From: Dictyostelium discoideum
Taxonomy: Eukaryota
Assembly (NCBI GenBank): GCA_000004695.1
Contig: CM000154.2
Location: 2,880,001-2,944,000 of the forward strand
Direction of reading: 5' to 3'
DNA: 64,000 nt
A program made the position numbers and the translations under genes. The notes beneath the pieces are model-generated. The model saw nothing but the letters and a program-made list of their open reading frames with translations, was not told the origin of the DNA and did not search any database. This document shows, one piece after another, positions 1 through 59,459 of the stretch (within the stretch, counting starts at the first letter, position 1; each line of letters begins with the position of its first letter).

Positions 1-200
1 AAGTATGTTTCGTTGAAAAAAAAAAATTTTGAGCAGATGATCATGATCTTTTTTTTTTTGATGACCATTTTTTAAAAATAAATAAAAAAAAAAATAGAGA
101 AAAAAAGTATGGTTTTTATTTAATCACATAAATAGTTGTTGCATCATTGTTTTTTGTTTTTCTATTTTTATTTTTTTTTTTTTTTATTTTTTTTTTTTAT

Positions 201-220
201 TCCCACACAGAATAACGTCT
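201..220 (+). promoter_or_regulatory. Conserved upstream element TCCCACA(CA)GAATAA(C/T)GTCT. Copies at 201..220, 2934..2953 and 6111..6130, each upstream of an actin gene.
   Basis: Near-identical G/C-containing 20-mer sitting in otherwise A/T-only upstream sequence, before three different actin genes. Confidence 0.4.
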
Positions 221-319
221 ATTCGTGTTTTTCTATTTTTATTTTTATTTTTTTTTTAATCAAAATTAAAATTATTTTTAAATCAATTTTAATTCGTAAT
301 TTCAAGATATAAGGAATAT

Positions 320-329
320 CCATATAAGG
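320..329 (+). promoter_or_regulatory. CArG box CCATATAAGG (SRF/MADS-box consensus CC(A/T)6GG) 19 bp upstream of the divergent-actin ATG. Identical copies occur at 3063..3072 and 1962..1971.
   Basis: Exact CC(A/T)6GG match seen three times, each time in the duplicated actin upstream regions. Confidence 0.5.
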
Positions 330-347
330 AAATATTGTAAAAATAAA

Positions 348-1466
348 ATGGAAATTAATGTTCAAGCTATAGTTATTGATAATGGTTCTGATACGTGTAA
401 AGCTGGTTTTGTTGGTGAAGAAGCTCCACATTCAGAGTTCCCATCGATTGTTGGTATTGATCAAAATGATTCATATGTTGGTAATGAAGCTCAATCAAAA
501 AGAGGTATTCTAACTCTTAAATATCCAATTGAACGTGGTATTATTACCAATTGGGATGATATGGAAAAAATCTGGCATCATGCTTTTTATAATGAACTTG
601 GTGTTGCTCCAGAGGAAAATATAGTAGTTTTATCTGAATCACCATTAAATCCAGAAGAAAATAGAGAGAAAATGGCTCAAATCATGTTTGAAACTTTCAA
701 AACTCCTGCAATATATGTTGAAAACCAAGCTGTATTTTCGATTTATAATTCTGGTCGTATGACTGGTATCGTTCTGGATTCAGGTGATAGTGCTTCTCAT
801 GTTGTACCAGTTTATGAAGGTCTTGCATTGCCACATGCGACTTCAAGTTTAGGTTTTGCTGGTTGTGATCTTACTGATCAAATGAGTTTATTATTAAATG
901 ATCTTGGTTACAACCTTGAAAGAGAAATAGTTAGAGATATTAAAGAGAAACTATCATATGTTTCATCAGATTTTTCATGGGAAATTAACGATCCATCAAC
1001 ATTAGGGAAATCATATGAACTACCAGACGGTCAAGTTATTACAATTGATAAAGAACTTTTTGCTTGCCCAGAGGTACTTTTCCTCCCATATGCATTTTTT
1101 GGTACGAACCTTGATGGTATTGACAAAGCAATCTATAATTCAATCATGAAGTGTAATGATGATATTCATAATGATTTATATGGTAATGTTGTATTATCAG
1201 GTGGTTCAACTATGTTCCCAGGTATTGAATATCGTATGTATAAAGGATTAACACAACTTGCACCATCAACAACGGAAATTGTAATTAATGCAGAACCAGA
1301 TCGTAAGAACTCTGTATGGATTGGTGGTTCAATTTTAGGCTTAGTTCCAAATTTCCAAGAATTGTGTATTGACAAAGAAGATTATGATGAATATGGTCCA
1401 TCGTTTGTGAACTTAGTAAAAAGTTTTAGAGAACAAAATCACCAAAATTATTATGGTGAAAATTAA
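348..1466 (+). CDS. Divergent actin (372 aa). It lacks the DNase-I-binding-loop segment [14 protein letters not shown] and carries a G->D change in the first phosphate-binding loop.
   Basis: Full-length ORF alignable to actin throughout (DNGSxxCKAGF, [36 protein letters not shown]). Residues 38-51 of canonical actin are replaced by IDQND. Confidence 0.85.
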
Positions 1467-1467
1467 C

Positions 1468-1509
<42 letters not shown>

Positions 1510-1628
1510 CAATTCCAGTTTTCTTCAAATTTTATTCTTAAAAATTATTTTTAAAATTATATTATTAATAAAAATGTTATAAATTTATGGGAAAATATTA
1601 TATTAATTTTTTTTGTTTTGGTAATAAT

Positions 1629-1680
<52 letters not shown>

Positions 1681-1810
1681 TTTTTTTTTTTTTTTTTTTT
1701 TTTTGTATAAATAATTATTTTTTAAATGAAAAAAAAAAATAAAAAAACTTTAAAAAATAAACAATAATTTATATATTCAAATAATAATCAAAATAATAAA
1801 AAAAAAAAAA

Positions 1811-2459
1811 ATGGAAAGTGAAGATGTTCAAGCTTTATTTTTTTTTTTTTTTCTTAGTTTATCAATTATCTACTATTTTTAAATATATAAACTGAGATGT
1901 ATATTAATAAAATAATTTATTTTGCCAGAATGTAATAATTATATCTCACTAATAAAAATATCCATATAAGGAGAATGTAATTATATAAAATTTTGTTTTT
2001 AAGTTTTTTTTTTTTTTTAAGCAAAATATTAATTTTTCAAATTACAACATTATGACAACCAAAAGTGATTTCTATGGGGCTGACCCCTTAGATTTTTCAA
2101 ATCTAGAAGCACTTTTCCGACCATCATTATTGGCTATGGGCTGTGGTGGTATTCATGAAACAATCTATAATTCAATCATGAAATGTGATTATGATATTCG
2201 TAAATATTTATTTGGTAGTGTGGTATTATCAGGTGGTTCAACTATGTTTCCAGGTATTGCAGATCGTATGAATAAAGAATTAACTGCACTTGCACCATCA
2301 ACAATGAAAATTAAAATTATTGCACCACCAGAACGTAAATACTCTGTATGGATTGGTGGTTCAATTTTAGCCTCACTTTCAAATTGTCAAGAAATGTGGA
2401 TTTCAAAAGAAGAATATGACGAATCTGGTCCATCAATTATTCACAGAAAATGTTTCTAA
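1811..2459 (+). pseudogene. Actin pseudogene with internal deletion. First 10 codons (MESEDVQAL) sit at 1811..1840, about 250 bp of unrelated sequence follows, then the C-terminal ~120 codons at ~2096..2459.
   Basis: 1801..1843 is identical to the start of the intact actin at 4652. ORF 2052..2459 matches the actin C-terminus ([14 protein letters not shown]...HRKCF*). The 3' flank matches the flank of the 4652 actin. About 240 codons are missing. Confidence 0.75.
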
Positions 2460-3080
2460 AAAAAATAGTTAAATTAATATAATAAAATAAAAATTATAAA
2501 AACAAAAAAAAAAAAACAAAAAAAAAAATTAAAAAAAAAAAAAAAATCATTTTTGAAACAAAAAATAGAATTAGTTTCTTGTCGATAAAAGAAATAACCA
2601 CTCATATAAATTTTTTTCACCAATGACATAATTTTGGCTCTATTTACGTAATATACCATTAAAGCATTCGCTGAAAAAAAAAAAGGTTAAAAAATAAAAC
2701 AAAAAAAAAAAAAAAAACAAAAAAACTAAAAGTCTAAAAGTATGGTTGGTTGAAAAAAAAAAATTTTGAGCAGATGATCATGATCTTTTTTTTTTGGTGG
2801 TCATTTTTTAAAAATAAATAAAAAAAAAAAATAGAGAAAAAAAGTATGGTTTTTATTTAATCACATAAATAGTTGTTGCATCATTGTTTTTTGTTTTTCT
2901 ATTTTTATTTTTATATTTTTTTTTTTTTTTTATTCCCACACAGAATAACGTCTATTCGTGTTTTTCTATTTCTATTTTTATTTTTTTTAAAATCAAAATT
3001 AAAATTATTTTTAAATCAATTTTAATTCGTAATTTCAAGATATAAGGAATATCCATATAAGGAAATATTGTAAAAATAAA

Positions 3081-4142
3081 ATGGAAATTAATGTTCAAGC
3101 TATAGTTATTGATAATGGTTCTGATACGTGTAAAGCTGGTTTTGTTGGTGAAGAAGCTCCACGTTCAGAGTTCCCATCGATTGTTGGTATTGATCAAAAT
3201 GATAAAGATTCATATGTTGGTAATGAAGCTCAATCAAAAAGAGGTATTCTAACTCTTAAATATCCAATTGAACGTGGTATTATTACCAATTGGGATGATA
3301 TGGAAAAAATCTGGCATCATGCTTTTTATAATGAACTTGGTGTTGCTCCAGAGGAAAATATAGTAGTTTTATCTGAATCACCATTAAATCCAGAAGAAAA
3401 TAGAGAGAAAATGGCTCAAATCATGTTTGAAACTTTCAAAACTCCTGCAATATATGTTGAAAACCAAGCTGTATTTTCGATTTATAATTCTGGTCGTATG
3501 ACTGGTATCGTTCTGGATTCAGGTGATAGTGCTTCTCATGTTGTACCAGTTTATGAAGGTCTTGCATTGCCACTTGCGACTTCAAGTTTAGGTTTTGCTG
3601 GTTGTGATCTTACTGATCAAATGAGTTTATTATTAAATGATCTTGGTTACAACCTTGAAAGAGAAATAGTTAGAGATATTAAAGAGAAACTATCATATGT
3701 TTCATCAGATTTTTTATGGGAAATTGACGATCCATCATTAGAGAAATCATATGAACTACCAGACGGTCAAGTTATTACAATTGGTAAAGAACTTTTAGCT
3801 TGCTCAGAGGGACTTTTCCTCCCATATGTATTTTTTGGTACGAACCTTGATGGTATTGACAAAGCAATCTATAATTCAATCATGAAATGTGATGTTGATA
3901 TTCATAATGATTTATATGGTAATGTTGTATTATCAGGTGGTTCAACTATGTTCCCAGGTATTGAATATCGTATGTATAAAGAATTAACACAACTTGCACC
4001 ATCAACAACGGAAATTGTAATTAATGCACCACCAGAACGTAAGAACTCTGTATGGATTGGTGGTTCAATTTTAGGCTTAGTTCCAAATTTCCCAGAATTG
4101 TGTTTTGACAAAGAAGATTATGATGAATATGGTCGGTTGTGA
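3081..4142 (+). CDS. Divergent actin, copy 2 (353 aa). The C-terminus is truncated by an indel/frameshift near 4130 relative to copy 1. Possibly a decaying paralog.
   Basis: About 97% identical to 348..1466. It retains KD ([12 protein letters not shown]) and ends ...DEYGRL* where copy 1 continues [11 protein letters not shown]... Confidence 0.8.
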
Positions 4143-4498
4143 ACTTAGTAAAAAGTATAAGAGAAGAAATTCAGATAACAAACACAAATTCACAGTTAAA
4201 AAAATAAAATAAAAAAATAAAAAAATAAAAAAATAAATAATAAAATTTAATAAAATAAATTAAATAAACTATTTTTTAGGTTCTTTTGATTTATTTTTTG
4301 TAATTTTATTTTATTTTTATTTTATAATTTTATACAAATTTTAAATAATTTCAAAAAAAAAAAAATAAAAAAAAAAATTCAATTCCAGTTTTCTTCAAAT
4401 TTTATTCTTAGAAATTATTTTTAAAATTATATTATTAATAAAAATGTTATAAATTTATGTGAAAATATTATATTTATTTTTATTTGTTTTGTTATTAT

Positions 4499-4546
<48 letters not shown>

Positions 4547-4639
4547 TATAAATAATTATTTTTTAAATGAAAAAAAAAAATAAAAAACTTTAAAAAATAA
4601 ACAATAATTTATATATTCAAATAATAATCAAAATAATAA

Positions 4640-5782
<1,143 letters not shown>

Positions 5783-6805: not shown

Positions 6806-7948
6806 ATGGAAAGAGAAGAAGTTCAAGCTATAGTTATTGATAATGGTTCTGATATGTGTAAAGCTGGTTTTGCTGGTGATGATGCTCCACGTGCAGTTTT
6901 CCAATCAATTGTTGGTCGCCCAAGATATACCGGTGTTATGGATGTTATGGGTCAAAAGGATTCATATATTGGTGATGAGGCTCATTCGAGAAAAGGTTTT
7001 TTAACTCTTAAATATCCAATTGAACGTGGTATTGTTACCAATTGGGATGATATGGAAGAAATCTGGCATCATACTTTTTATAATGAACTTGGTGTTGCTC
7101 CAGAGGAACATCCAGTTCTCTTAACTGAACAACCATTAAATCCAAAAAAAAATAGAGAGAAAATGACTCAAATCATGTTTGAAACTTTCAATACTCCTGC
7201 AATGTATGTTGCCATTCAAGCTGTATTATCACTTTATTCATCTGGTCGTACAACTGGTATCGTTATGGATTCAGGTGATGGTGTTTCTCATGCCGTATCG
7301 ATTTATGAAGGTCATGCATTACCACATGCAATTTTACGTTTGGATTTAGCAGGTCGTGATCTTTCTGATTACATGATGAAAATCTTAACTAAACGTGGTT
7401 ACTCATTTACAACAACTGCTGAAAAAGAAATAATTAAAGATATTAAAGAGAAATTATCATATGTAGCATTGGATTTTGATGCTGAGATGCTAACTGCAGC
7501 CTCGTCAACAACATTAGAGAAATCATATGAATTACCAGACGGTAAAGTTATTACAATTGGTAATGAACGTTTCCGTTGTCCAGAGGCACTTTTTCAACCA
7601 TCATTATTGGCTATGGAATCTGCTGGTATTCATGAAACAATCTATAATTCAATCATGAAATGTGATGTTGATATTCGTAGATATTTATTTGGTAATGTTA
7701 TATTATCAGGTGGTTCGACAATGTTCCCAGGTATTGCAGATCGTATGAATAAAGAATTAACTGCACTTGCACCATCAACAATGAAAATTAAAATTATTGC
7801 ACCACCAGAACGTAAATACTCTGTATGGGTTGGTGGTTCAATTTTAGCCTCACTTTCGAGTTTCCAAGAAATGTGGATTTCAAAAGAAGAATATAATGAA
7901 TCTGGTCCATCAATTGTTCACAGAAAATGTTCTAATTATTTAAAATAA
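6806..7948 (+). CDS. Actin variant (380 aa, starts MEREEVQ, C-terminal extension HRKCSNYLK)
   Basis: Full-length actin ORF, about 90% identical to major actin. Preceded at 6040..6135 by the same upstream module as the divergent actins. Confidence 0.9.
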
Positions 7949-8907: not shown

Positions 8908-10870
8908 ATGATTGAAGGTAGTGGTAGTAAAACTCCAAAGAGAAACTCTGATGAAATTTCAGTCAAGAGTTTAAGTATTCATGAAGCCAATACATTATCA
9001 TCTGAACATGAACATGAAAGTGGAAATGAAGAATTAACCCTCAGTCAAATTGTTATTAGATCAGACTTTGCCAATGAATCCTCTGAAAGACAATCAAAGA
9101 TCATTTTGGATAGATTCAATCAAGGTATTGGTAAAAACTCTGCATTTACAGATTCACCAGCACTTGGTCGTGGTCTTTCACGTGTTGATGTTAGTTATTT
9201 TGTTATGGGTCATCGTAATCAAGTTGCAGAGTTATATGATCCACGTGGTCAACGTTTCAGTACTGTATTAACACCAGATCCAACTGTTAACATTAAATAC
9301 GTTGGTCCAGTTTCAAAGACTGCACACTACTTTGGTGCCTATGGTAAACATGTCTTAAACGTTCCAGCTGGTCATTATGCTAAAGCATTCTCAAAGAATA
9401 GACCAGTTCTCTATGGTGAAGGTCCACATGTTATCATTGATCCAACTTTCCAATTTGATGAAAATAATGGTTTTGTTAATCAACAAGAACCATTCATTGA
9501 ACATTCAACTATTAATATTCTTAGAATTCCAGCTGGTAAAGTAAGTAAAAATTTTAAAAATAAATTAAAATAATAATAATAATAATAATAATAATTAATA
9601 ATATTTTAATTATTTAATTTTTTCAGATTGCAAAAGTTTGGATTGGTACTCAACCACATATTTTAGAATCACGTCGTGATCCATATGTTTTTGTTGATGC
9701 TCAATTTAAATTAGTTTCACCTGATGGTGCAAAAAAAGCACAACTTTTTGAAAGTTCATCTTGTACCTTTGTTGAACATGGTTCAATTAAACGTATTATT
9801 CCACATGTATGTATAATAATTTTTTAAAAAAAAAAAAAGTTTAAATTAAAAAAATATGTTAATTTTATTTATTTTATTTTAATTAGACTGGTGAAGTTGC
9901 AATTACATATAATAATGGTATTTTAACAATTATTCCAACACCAAAAGATGGTAAACCAGTTATTATTGATTCACCAACTCATAACTTTGAAGGTTTTATT
10001 AGTACAAGTTTACAAACTTGTTTATTCCCATCAAAGGAAACTAAACAACAAGCATTGGCAGATAACAAATCAGCATTGGCAGATGAAATTAATTTAAAGA
10101 TTTTCCAAACCAGAGATTCACTTCGTGTTGGTGTTGTATTGGTAGTTGCATTTAAAATTGTTGACCCAGAACTAGCAATTACTAAACTTGGTAAAGAGGG
10201 TATTATCAATCATATTGAGAATGTTTCATTCGCTGATATGGGTAAAGCAATTCAATTGAGTACTTTACAAGAGATTATGTATTTCAATAGTATTAAACCA
10301 GGTCAAGCCACCAATGATGATAGTGTTCAAACCATTCAAGATCGTGTAAAGAGTCATTTGGCTAGAGATTTATTCGATTATGGTGTTGAGTTATCACGTT
10401 TACAAATTGAAACTATGAAAGTTTTAGATACTGAAATCGCAAAGAAACTCGCTGGCCAATCTGTCACCTCTGCAGAGTTTACCACTAAACAAGCAACCCT
10501 TGTCAAAGAGTATGATATTAAAACCACTGAAGCTCGTCTCAAGGCTGAAACTGATAATATCGCTTTGGAACAAAGAAATAAAGCTATCATCTCTGAATCT
10601 CAAGCTAAATTATCCTCTGCTCAAAGAGAAGCTGAATCTTTACTCATCACTGCTGAGGCTCAAAAGAAAGCTTCTGAATTACAAGGTGAACTCTACACTA
10701 AATATCCAATTCTTGCTGAAATCGAATTGGCTAGAATTAAAGCTGAAGCCCTCAAAAATGCCACCCTTTACATCACTCCTCAAGATGCTGGTGCTTTCAT
10801 GAATTCTCCATTGGTTTATTTCGATAAAATGATGAATGCTAATAATACTATTCAACAAAAAAAGAATTAA
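8908..10870 (+). CDS. SPFH/band-7 flotillin-like protein, vacuolin-like (599 aa). Exons: 8908..9540, 9627..9806, 9887..10870.
   Basis: GTAAGT/GTATGT donors and TTTCAG/AATTAG acceptors, with reading frame preserved across both introns. The central SPFH-like region is followed by an A/E/K-rich coiled-coil tail, like flotillin. Dictyostelium vacuolins are flotillin homologs of about this size. Confidence 0.6.
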
Positions 10871-11659: not shown

Positions 11660-12033
11660 ATGTCAATTAATCGTGGATGTTTAACAAATATTATTAACGT
11701 TGACCAAACTAAACGTTTTCAAAATATTGATTGTAGAGTTCAAGTTATAAAAACAAAACAATCTTCAAGTAATAATTTAGAAATTCATTTATCAGATCAA
11801 GATCATATTTTTGTTGGTATTTCAAAGACTGATCCATCAAATATTCCAATCAATTCAATTGTTAACCTAAGTGATTTCTCTATAAACTTTCCAAAAAGAT
11901 TCCTTAATATCGTTCAATTCAATGTTATCTCTCAAGAAAAAGAAATTAAAACCGCACAAGGTAAAGCTTTAACATATCACTCAGTATATAAAAAAACAGA
12001 TGGCAATAGTCAAAACAGTAATCAACCACAACC

Positions 12034-12068
<35 letters not shown>

Positions 12069-13699
12069 CAAGAGCAAATACAACAATGGGCTCAAATAGT
12101 GGAATTGCATCAAGAGGTAATCCTTTAGCAAATCAAAGAAATCAAGCAGGTGCAATTAGATCAAATAATAATTTTGGTGGTAATAGTAATAATAATAATA
12201 ATAACAATTATAATAACAACAATAATAATAATAATAATAATAGTGGTGGTGGTTCAAATAATTTTTATGCAGATTTATCAACACAACCAATTACAGATAT
12301 TGAAAGTATAGCACCTGGTATGAATGTTCAATTTACAATCAGAGCAATGGTTAGAAATAAACAACCATTAAAAAGTTGGAATAAGGGAGCCAATGGTGAA
12401 GGTAAACTTTTTAGTATGGAATTGGTAGATAGTACTGGTGAAATTAAATGTGCTTGTTTCTCTGATAGTTCAAATCCAAACAACTTTATCAATGCACTCT
12501 ATGATTGCTTTGAAAATGGTAAAGTCTATTTCATTCAAAGATTCTTTGTTAAAAGTGCAAACAAATTATACAATACACTCTCACATCAATCTGAACTCAG
12601 TATCAACTCTGAATCAAGAGTAATGATTAGTCCAGATCAAACCCAATTCACTCCACATTATAATTTCAAAAAGATTGCTGATATTGAAAACTTGGAAAAG
12701 AACGACACTGTCGATGTTATTGGTGCCATTACAAACATTGATCCAATCGCCAATCTCACTAGCAAACAAGGTAAAGAATTCACCAAATTTGGTATCACCA
12801 TCGCCGATGACACCAATGCCAGTATCAATGTCGTTTTTTGGAATGAAAAAGCCACTGAAGTTGCACCTCAAGTAAAGGTTGGTGATATCATTGCAATGAA
12901 GGGTGTAAAAGTTTCCGATTTCTCTGGTAGAACACTCTCTTATAGTTTTGGTTCATCCTTTGGATTGAATGATGAACAACTTCAAGAAACCAGTAATCTT
13001 CGTGCACATTTACAAAACTTTGATGTCAATTCTCTTCAATCACTTACCATTGCAAGTTCCTACACCCAAAGTTCCTATGAACAAGTTAATCTTCCAATCT
13101 TTTTAATCAGAACCATCTCTGAAGGTTCACCACTCTTCATTTCAGATCCAAAAACAAATAAAAAACTCTATCGTACAATCGGTCAATTCCAACGTGTCGT
13201 TCCTTTAAGTCAAGCTGGAGAGATGGACAAAGGTGATGAAATCTCTTCCAAAATGGAATGGAAATATAAAGCATGCAAAAAATGTAAAAAATCTTGTCCA
13301 GAAGGTAGTTGCCCACAATGTGGTTCAGATGATTGGGAATATGCTTATCGTATGAGTTTGAAATTATCCGATGGTGATGATGCAATCAGTGTTGAGGTAA
13401 TGGGTAAAACTGGTGATAGATTATTTGGTAAAAGCGCTGCAGAATTATATCAAATGAATCAAGAACAAATCAATGAAATCTTTAACACTGTACTTAGTAA
13501 CAATTATGTTGTTTCACTTGCCCCAAGCTCTTATATGGGTAGCAATGGTCAAACTTACAACAGATTCAATGTCTATGATTTTGCAAATCTCTATGATACA
13601 CCAAACAAACTAGTTTCTGGTCCAAATCCAAATGCTCCAAATCAATTCCAAAATTATATTGAAAGTAGTTTTAATGATTGTAGATTATTTAATGAATAA
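11660..13699 (+). CDS. rfa1: Replication protein A 70 kDa subunit (RPA70), 679 aa, single exon
   Basis: OB-fold DBD-A/B similarity (GEGKLFSMELVDSTGEIKCACFSD, VKVSDFSGRTLS). C4 zinc ribbon CKKCKKS...CPQCG. RPA70-like C-terminal domain. N/Q-rich linker. Confidence 0.85.

Positions 13700-58325: not shown

Positions 58326-59459
<1,134 letters not shown>

Follow-up and report, generated by a model that had tools for sequence, protein, structure and literature searches.

In filamentous actin (F-actin) an incoming monomer binds the barbed end through its DNase-I-binding loop (D-loop) and the face of subdomain 4. The D-loop of the next subunit is held in a groove to which Y143, T148, Y169, L349, M355 and the C-terminus contribute, and contacts between the strands are made by the hydrophobic plug, K113, R177/D179 and E270. 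Actins that cannot polymerise have been engineered, for example AP-actin (A204E/P243K) and DVD-actin (D286A/V287A/D288A), and D-loop-cleaved actins also belong to this group; in the engineered mutants one face, barbed or pointed, is still intact and nucleotides are bound normally. The actin-related proteins (Arps) Arp1 to Arp11, which are ancient and conserved, share the actin fold with modified loops and are not filament subunits. Another actin-like system is the Dictyostelium polyphosphate kinase DdPPK2, for which Gomez-Garcia and Kornberg (2004) is said to be the primary report. According to reviews, DdPPK2 consists of Arp1, Arp2 and an unreported Arpx, and the complex has been reported to form an actin-like filament while synthesising inorganic polyphosphate (polyP). 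The genes considered here, act27 and act28 of Dictyostelium discoideum, encode actins without a D-loop and lie in a tandem array of actin genes on chromosome 5. The DNA analysed, called the window below, is a stretch of 64,000 nucleotides (assembly GCA_000004695.1, contig CM000154.2, forward-strand positions 2,880,001 to 2,944,000), and coordinates refer to it.

The coding sequence (CDS) of act27 (348..1466, + strand) specifies 372 amino acids (DDB_G0289533, UniProt Q54HE9, "Putative actin-27"). That of act28, the second copy in AX4 of this actin without a D-loop (3081..4142, + strand), specifies 353 (DDB_G0289511, UniProt Q54HE7, "Putative actin-28"). Both products are exact sequence matches to these D. 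discoideum AX4 entries. The two genes were catalogued in the 2008 "actinome" paper (PMC2441452); being already annotated and published, they are not new. What is added here is that the D-loop-less lineage has been kept in three genomes, that its open reading frame (ORF) is combined with a ratio of non-synonymous to synonymous substitution rates (dN/dS) of about 1 or more, and that the locus is linked through the literature to ArpX.

Both products belong to the actin family. The Pfam Actin profile (PF00022, cut-off 27) gives 371.4 bits for act27 and 370.3 bits for act28, and a phmmer comparison with solved Dictyostelium actin structures aligns them over their full length (E ~1e-146). They are collinear with conventional Act8-group actin (1NLV, 3CHW) over residues 4-355. 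The reference for the residue alignment was the Act8-group actin of the window itself, an Act8-type major actin gene at 58326..59456 (- strand). The act27 and act28 products are only 66-68% identical to Act8 (gap-free count). The first-pass annotation of this DNA had described them as otherwise full-length actins, a description that does not survive the low identity, the additional deletions in subdomain 4, the altered plug and the lack of a terminal HRKCF.

The D-loop has been removed from both copies. In act27, four residues (IDQN, 456..467, + strand) replace R37-K50, a net loss of ten residues that corresponds to the D-loop; this junction pattern is unique in the window. The act28 junction (IDQNDK, 3189..3206, + strand) replaces the same R37-K50 segment and combines the D-loop deletion with a derived 6-nt insertion (DK), so that the net loss is eight residues. 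Subdomain 4 is also shortened. An in-frame deletion of residues 201-204 lies at the YNL/ERE junction of act27 (909..926, + strand), and a second in-frame deletion, of three residues in act27 (INDPS segment, 984..998, + strand), falls in the 229-235 region, where three to four residues are missing across the two genes. One candidate for comparison was rejected. PDB 1C0F chain A, at first sight a D-loop-deleted actin, ranks above full-length PDB entries only because its deposited sequence omits seven D-loop residues (...GRPRHTGKDSYVG...).

The remaining contacts were scored at residues 199-205, the plug (262-274), K113, R177, D179, E270, the groove residues Y143/T148/Y169/L349/M355 and the C-terminal HRKCF. 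In act27 the altered hydrophobic plug starts at LPYA (1083..1094, + strand), with S265Y and a one-residue insertion, changes that both copies have. K113E, R177S, D179G, E270N and R290H are found in both copies. Changes at the barbed-face groove include T148M/V, Y169L/H/F, L349V/I/L and W356C; the two genes of the window have T148M, Y169L and W356C, and both Y169 and L349 occur in three states among the orthologues described below. The C-terminus has been replaced. Neither copy ends in HRKCF, act27 reads through into the former 3' untranslated region (UTR), and the C-terminal tails in general are unconserved read-through into the 3' UTR. In act28 the ending is further affected by a 4-bp deletion relative to act27 and both orthologues, at about nt 4133/4134 (GG----TCGG in act28, GGTCCATCGT in act27). 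The frame becomes GGT CGG TTG TGA (4131..4142, + strand), and the protein ends ...DEYGRL, nine codons before the canonical end, after canonical residue ~366. As judged by alignment, then, every filament-contact element listed is deleted or substituted, and several vary between orthologues. The first-pass proposal of a non-polymerising product is therefore plausible and the most reasonable inference, nearly all filament contacts besides the D-loop being altered as well.

The phosphate-binding loops are also modified. Both copies read GSDTCKAGF in P1 in place of GSGMCKAGF. In act27 the loop DNGSDTCK occupies 378..401 (+ strand), with G15D at 390-392 and M16T at 393-395; codons 15-16 of act28 are at 3123-3128. 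The canonical P1 and P2 loops (GSGMCK; DSGDGV) are thus not kept, since G158S and V159A are found along with G15D and M16T, and the orthologues add S155L/I, D154E and H161Y at P2-loop or catalytic positions. Most other residues of the nucleotide pocket are retained (D11, S14, K18, Q137, G156, D157, G301, G302, K336). G15D is also present in the neighbouring act18, and Act25 has G15S; the P1 change is for this reason a feature of the array and not specific to act27 and act28. The altered P1 loop, the D-loop replacement and the frameshift of act28 had all been read from the DNA in the first-pass annotation, and each was found again here.

The proteins were also compared with known actins. The features of a conventional actin, that is an intact D-loop (~38-52), standard P1 and P2 loops, inter-subunit contacts and strong purifying selection, are missing from act27 and act28. 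Unlike conventional Act8-group actin, they have lost the D-loop and residues 201-204, have an altered plug and C-terminus, carry G15D, M16T and G158S, and evolve with a dN/dS of ~1.1-1.3 (0.07 for act3 vs Act8). They also have features in common with act18, act24 and act25. These genes share one tandem array with them, and in the tree the D-loop-less clade branches among these neighbours. For example, act18 shares G15D, H73R and several sequence motifs with act27 and act28, and act25 likewise has altered loops (G15S, a D-loop insertion and a six-residue plug deletion). However, none of the three is without a D-loop, and act18 keeps the loop in full and is under purifying selection.

The Arps offer a parallel in that act27 and act28, too, have the actin fold with modified loops and probably are not filament subunits. 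In contrast to the Arps, they are orthologous to no Arp class; the closest proteins outside their own clade are conventional actins (~61-68%), and they branch inside the Dictyostelium actin array, are very young and are weakly constrained. In engineered non-polymerisable actins the same surfaces are affected (201-204 deleted, residues 286/287 = N/D in act27, no D-loop), and by analogy this likeness predicts an actin that would remain monomeric. The difference is that act27 and act28 are natural proteins with dozens more substitutions, on both faces.

A whole-database protein search detected the D-loop deletion in only two other proteins. One (P0058, 363 aa) comes from a "D. discoideum" genome, GCA_054859385.1 (FIR), and is 76% identical by BLASTP (74.5% gap-free); the other (P0087, 371 aa) comes from "D. 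cf. discoideum" GCA_054859205.1 (FIY) and is 70% identical by BLASTP (70.6% gap-free). In both the junction reads FPSIVG-IDQ(N/K)-DSYVG. The two loci are single-copy and syntenic, in actin arrays upstream of a Band_7 gene. In the tree the four D-loop-less proteins are monophyletic, (FIY,(FIR,(act27,act28))), and branch from within the array's divergent actins. Since the deletion is shared by a clade that spans AX4, FIR and FIY, loss of the D-loop was ancestral to the three lineages. The comparison also shows that this ancestor gained K113E, R177S, D179G, S265Y, E270N, R290H, W356C and the read-through C-terminus. The two subdomain-4 deletions are shown to have arisen later, being common to AX4 and FIR only, and the duplication that gave act27 and act28 to be specific to the AX4 lineage.

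Wider searches have not enlarged this group. A profile built from the four D-loop-less proteins retrieved no further single-domain protein above the score level of conventional actins, and a 41-residue query spanning the D-loop junction matched only two irrelevant fragments. Two degenerate DNA patterns for the junction had no matches in 241 million metagenome records; positive controls recovered all known copies. Nothing relevant turned up in a literature search for natural D-loop-less actins. As far as searched, the paralogue appears to be young and restricted to the D. discoideum species complex.

Substitution rates were estimated by the Nei-Gojobori method. For pairs of D-loop-less orthologues (dS 0.11-0.18) dN/dS is 1.13-1.32, in contrast to 0.23-0.31 for act18 orthologues from the same genomes (dS again 0.11-0.18) and 0.07 for act3 vs Act8 (dS 0.185). 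Between act27 and act28 the ratio is 2.8 (dS 0.009; 2 synonymous and 20 non-synonymous differences). None of the values for D-loop-less genes is significantly different from 1. Ratios of ~1 are observed in nearly all 40-codon windows along these genes. At columns invariant in seven conventional paralogues dN/dS is 0.79-0.95, and at other columns 1.6-2.1. The other divergent actins of the array, the Act24/25-like genes, are also fast (0.72-0.79). Replacements in the D-loop-less genes have thus been shown to accumulate about as fast as expected under neutrality or faster, including at positions that do not vary in conventional actins. Sequence constraint this weak speaks against a core role in the cell.

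The reading frame itself has a different history. About 5.3% of possible point changes make a stop, and ~7-10 stops would be expected per orthologue pair; none is present among the 135-184 nucleotide differences that separate orthologues. When the same number of substitutions was placed at random the ORF stayed open in <=0.08% of simulations (P<=0.0008), and under AT-biased mutation in 0%. For the young act27/act28 pair the same test is without power (P = 0.2-0.3). No internal stop or frameshift is found in act27, FIR or FIY, and act28 has only its terminal frameshift. All gap runs in the body of the CDS (12/12) are multiples of three, whereas the DNA aligned upstream has indels of any length. 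There are also 33 sites at which the three lineages have three different residues, compared with 19.5 +/- 3.6 in neutral simulations from which stops were already excluded; 33 was reached in 0 of 1000 simulations, and the sites are spread along the protein. Because stops are missing, gaps remain in frame and multiply-hit sites are in excess, it is argued that the reading frame is under selection to stay open. An ORF that is open across three lineages also speaks against the alternative, raised in the first-pass annotation, that both copies are pseudogenes.

Differences between act27 and act28 can be polarised with the outgroups. Of the replacements, ~10 are derived in act27, among them G251D, E316G, P332E and E334D, which fall at positions that do not otherwise vary; in act28 there are ~6, together with the DK insertion and the terminal frameshift. 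The frameshift had been taken earlier as a sign that one copy is decaying. The idea that the two copies differ in preservation was considered and rejected, since both drift.

The proximal promoter is conserved. The motif CCATATAAGG is found 19-28 nt upstream of the ATG of act27 (320..329, + strand), in both orthologous upstream regions, and at the same distance from the ATG of act28 (3053-3062). The proximal ~90 bp are nearly invariant in AX4, FIR and FIY, including the tandem ATATAAGGAA / CCATATAAGG. As CCATATAAGG overlaps the tandem ATATAAGGAA, this putative CArG box, the type of element bound by SRF-type (MADS) factors, could equally be a TATA element. An enrichment of CArG motifs in the window was rejected, CC(A/T)6GG occurring 7 times with 5.0 +/- 2.2 expected, which is the chance level. 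The earlier claim of CArG-containing promoters therefore stands insofar as a conserved CArG-like motif precedes both genes, and the frequency of such motifs in the window adds nothing to it.

Transcription of act27 is indicated by RNA-seq. In Table S1 of PMC8204557, an RNA-seq study, act27 (DDB_G0289533) is listed as differentially expressed, with a fold change of -2.55 (p=0.000) beside act3 (-2.49) and act26 (-2.44). Judging from its position and from the presence of atg9 in the list, the comparison is ATG9-/16- vs AX2. Transcripts of the D-loop-less paralogue are therefore detectable in growing cells, and the lack of a transcript that would have marked these genes as pseudogenes is, for act27, not what was found. 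Neither act27 nor act28 is present in the supplements searched of other transcriptome and proteome papers.

The reading preferred for act27 and act28, with about an even chance of being correct, is that they encode an expressed (as transcript), weakly constrained, non-polymerising protein with the actin fold. The product would be a low-abundance actin-fold protein unable to enter filaments, dismantled as it is on the pointed side (D-loop, 201-204) and on the barbed side (groove and C-terminus). The ATPase site is probably impaired or irrelevant (G15D/F and G158S, with S155L/I, D154E and H161Y in orthologues). Any role would be that of a monomeric or complex-bound actin-like protein, not of a filament subunit, capper or poison. 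Several points weigh against this reading. A whole-gene dN/dS of ~1, with nucleotide-binding residues that vary between orthologues, is the pattern of a gene without function at the protein level. The failure to polymerise is deduced from textbook F-actin contacts. AlphaFold2 with a 28-sequence alignment gave Act27 a mean predicted local distance difference test score (pLDDT) of 42, and with the same alignment the Act8 control gave 36.9, so that both models are uninformative. A protein database holds intact ORFs only, and lineages with a broken copy would be missed. RNA-seq reads may cross-map among the 95%-identical act27 and act28 and other actins. Finally, act27 is one of four actin genes without expressed sequence tags (ESTs), a group that does not include act28 (PMC2441452).

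The closest competitor, which is less likely though it deserves serious attention, is that act27, act28 and their orthologues have no function and are relics turning into pseudogenes, with transcription still driven by an inherited promoter. The ORFs would then be open because the lineage is young, because they have been patched by gene conversion from conventional actins, or because harmful fragments are purged. The ratios quoted above (1.1-1.3 for orthologues, 2.8 for act27 vs act28), which do not differ significantly from neutrality, are what such genes would show, as is the free change of conventionally invariant residues, including S155, D154 and H161 in the orthologues. The frameshift in act28, the unconserved read-through tails and the missing ESTs of act27 fit as well, and outright pseudogenes are close at hand, act36_ps in the window and act30_ps upstream. 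Even conversion has a candidate trace, since act28 N286D/D287V resembles a micro-conversion to the conventional sequence. Extensive conversion, however, would have wiped out the D-loop deletion and the derived residues held in common, and all four genes still have these. The relic explanation also has to accommodate four ORFs without a stop where ~7-10 per orthologue pair are expected (P<=0.0008), twelve of twelve internal gap runs in frame, more multiply-substituted sites than neutral simulation yields, a conserved proximal promoter and the RNA-seq signal for act27.

Two functional alternatives are much less probable. A protein that binds filament ends or co-polymerises, capping or poisoning actin filaments, had been proposed in the first-pass annotation. 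The actin-fold motifs are largely kept (Pfam 371 bits; E ~1e-146), and a D-loop-less actin whose barbed face is intact might in theory stop pointed ends from elongating. Such activity would need one intact face, but both are degraded. The groove and C-terminus of the barbed face are altered and variable between orthologues (T148M/V, Y169L/H/F, L349V/I/L, W356C, replaced tail), the lateral contacts have changed too (K113E, R177S, D179G, E270N), and an end-binding interface under selection should be conserved, yet dN/dS is ~1. Because no face is conserved, capping or poisoning is disfavoured and appears improbable. It seems very doubtful, too, that act27 or act28 is the "ArpX" subunit of DdPPK2 (Arp1/Arp2/ArpX). 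The connection comes from secondary literature only, in which two later papers assign an accession of this pair to the third DdPPK2 ("PPK3") subunit. If peptides underlie that assignment, it would be evidence of expression at the protein level. The two sources disagree on the paralogue, Table 1 of PMC4400040 giving Q54HE9 and PMC13318637 giving Q54HE7 as arpX, and the activity itself is disputed; PMC7054745 describes it as lacking confirming genetic data and reports that cells lacking Ppk1 have no detectable polyP. An enzyme subunit should moreover show purifying selection, especially in its phosphate loops, and in these genes the loops vary between orthologues.

A last possibility, speculative and the least probable of those considered, is that selection has been diversifying, not relaxed, and that the protein is a non-polymerising actin decoy or sensor for actin-targeting bacterial effectors and toxins. 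The ORF would be held open and the surface would meanwhile change at the neutral rate or above it (1.6-2.1 at actin-variable sites). T148M/V, R177S and E270N are found in all copies, and K50 is altered in AX4 and FIR and kept in FIY; we take these positions to be target sites of toxins or effectors.

The array in which the two genes lie has been rearranged. Self-comparison of the window, whose G+C content is 13-30% (AT-rich), aligns 1..1513 to 2738..4251 with 95.0% identity and 1483..1837 to 4353..4678 with 89% identity, the latter running into the start of act3. The duplicated unit therefore consists of a D-loop-less actin and a conventional-type actin. Its first copy begins with the upstream region and promoter of act27 (1..347, + strand), the unit extending past the edge of the window, and its second with the upstream region and promoter of act28 (2738..3080, + strand), which includes the CCATATAAGG at 3053-3062. 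Behind act27, a 5' stub of a conventional-type actin (1811..1837, + strand; the first 27 nt, or nine codons) forms part of act36_ps. The rest is a C-terminal actin fragment of 135 aa (2052..2459, + strand) that covers Pfam Actin profile positions 277-410 only and is 92-93% identical to the 3' parts of act3 and act18; it corresponds to the 135-aa pseudogene act36_ps listed in PMC2441452. Unlike act27, act36_ps has the disabling lesion of a pseudogene. These alignments show that in the AX4 lineage the unit was duplicated and that the first of the conventional copies was afterwards reduced to act36_ps. CCATATAAGG occurs a third time at 1962-1971, in unrelated filler between the two pieces of act36_ps.

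The next ORFs are act3 (4652..5782) and act18 (6806..7948). In a second AX4-type assembly the order of the array is act30_ps, act24, act25, act27, act36_ps, act28, act3, act18 and the Band_7 gene, and in all three lineages the Band_7/SPFH gene is the conserved right-hand border. This gene has 598 aa in other assemblies, and 8908-9573 and 10055-10870 of the window are apparently its exons. The array on chromosome 5 is a zone of gene birth, gene loss and exchange among paralogues. The distance between the start codons of act27 and act28 is 2733 bp in the window (348 to 3081) and 2689 bp in a newer AX4-type assembly (L003, 10001 to 12690); the difference presumably lies in the long intergenic A/T homopolymer tracts.

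Other members of the array have peculiarities of their own. In act18, in addition to G15D and H73R, the canonical stop has been lost (...RKCSNYLK, 380 aa), and this gene still has a dN/dS of 0.23-0.31. Act25, whose AX4 gene lies just upstream of the window (L003 8164-9321) and which is also found at L002 8051-9217, has a D-loop insertion of 9-12 residues (DKKDSYFCKKNSCF) and a six-residue deletion in the hydrophobic plug (FRPYTGIHE). The D-loop insertion of the FIY Act25-like gene contains ATTGATCAAAATAATTCATATGTT, which equals 23/24 nt of the D-loop-less junction; this match suggests that adjacent paralogues have exchanged sequence. The array is headed by two actin ORFs (106 and 258 aa; L003 4259-5390) that fit the published act30_ps, a frameshifted actin.

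Beyond the array, a gene on the - strand (13954-14994) encodes a protein with WH1, WH2 and VASP-tetramerisation domains, a VASP-type actin regulator ~6 kb from the actin genes; a + strand ORF that overlaps it (14264-14845) is probably spurious. A 679-aa protein with OB folds of the replication-protein-A type is encoded at 11660-13699. The product of 40446-46808 (2120 aa) has long tracts of Asn/Gln and carries a protein kinase domain at its C-terminus.

The practical weight of these observations is limited, since the genes are annotated and apparently confined to one species complex. The locus bears on the contested claim of an actin-like polyphosphate kinase (DdPPK2/"ArpX") in Dictyostelium. 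The two genes also illustrate how tandem actin arrays create and discard paralogues. If the preferred reading holds, act27 and act28 would represent a natural actin stripped of its polymerisation surfaces and could provide a test case for the actin fold outside filaments.

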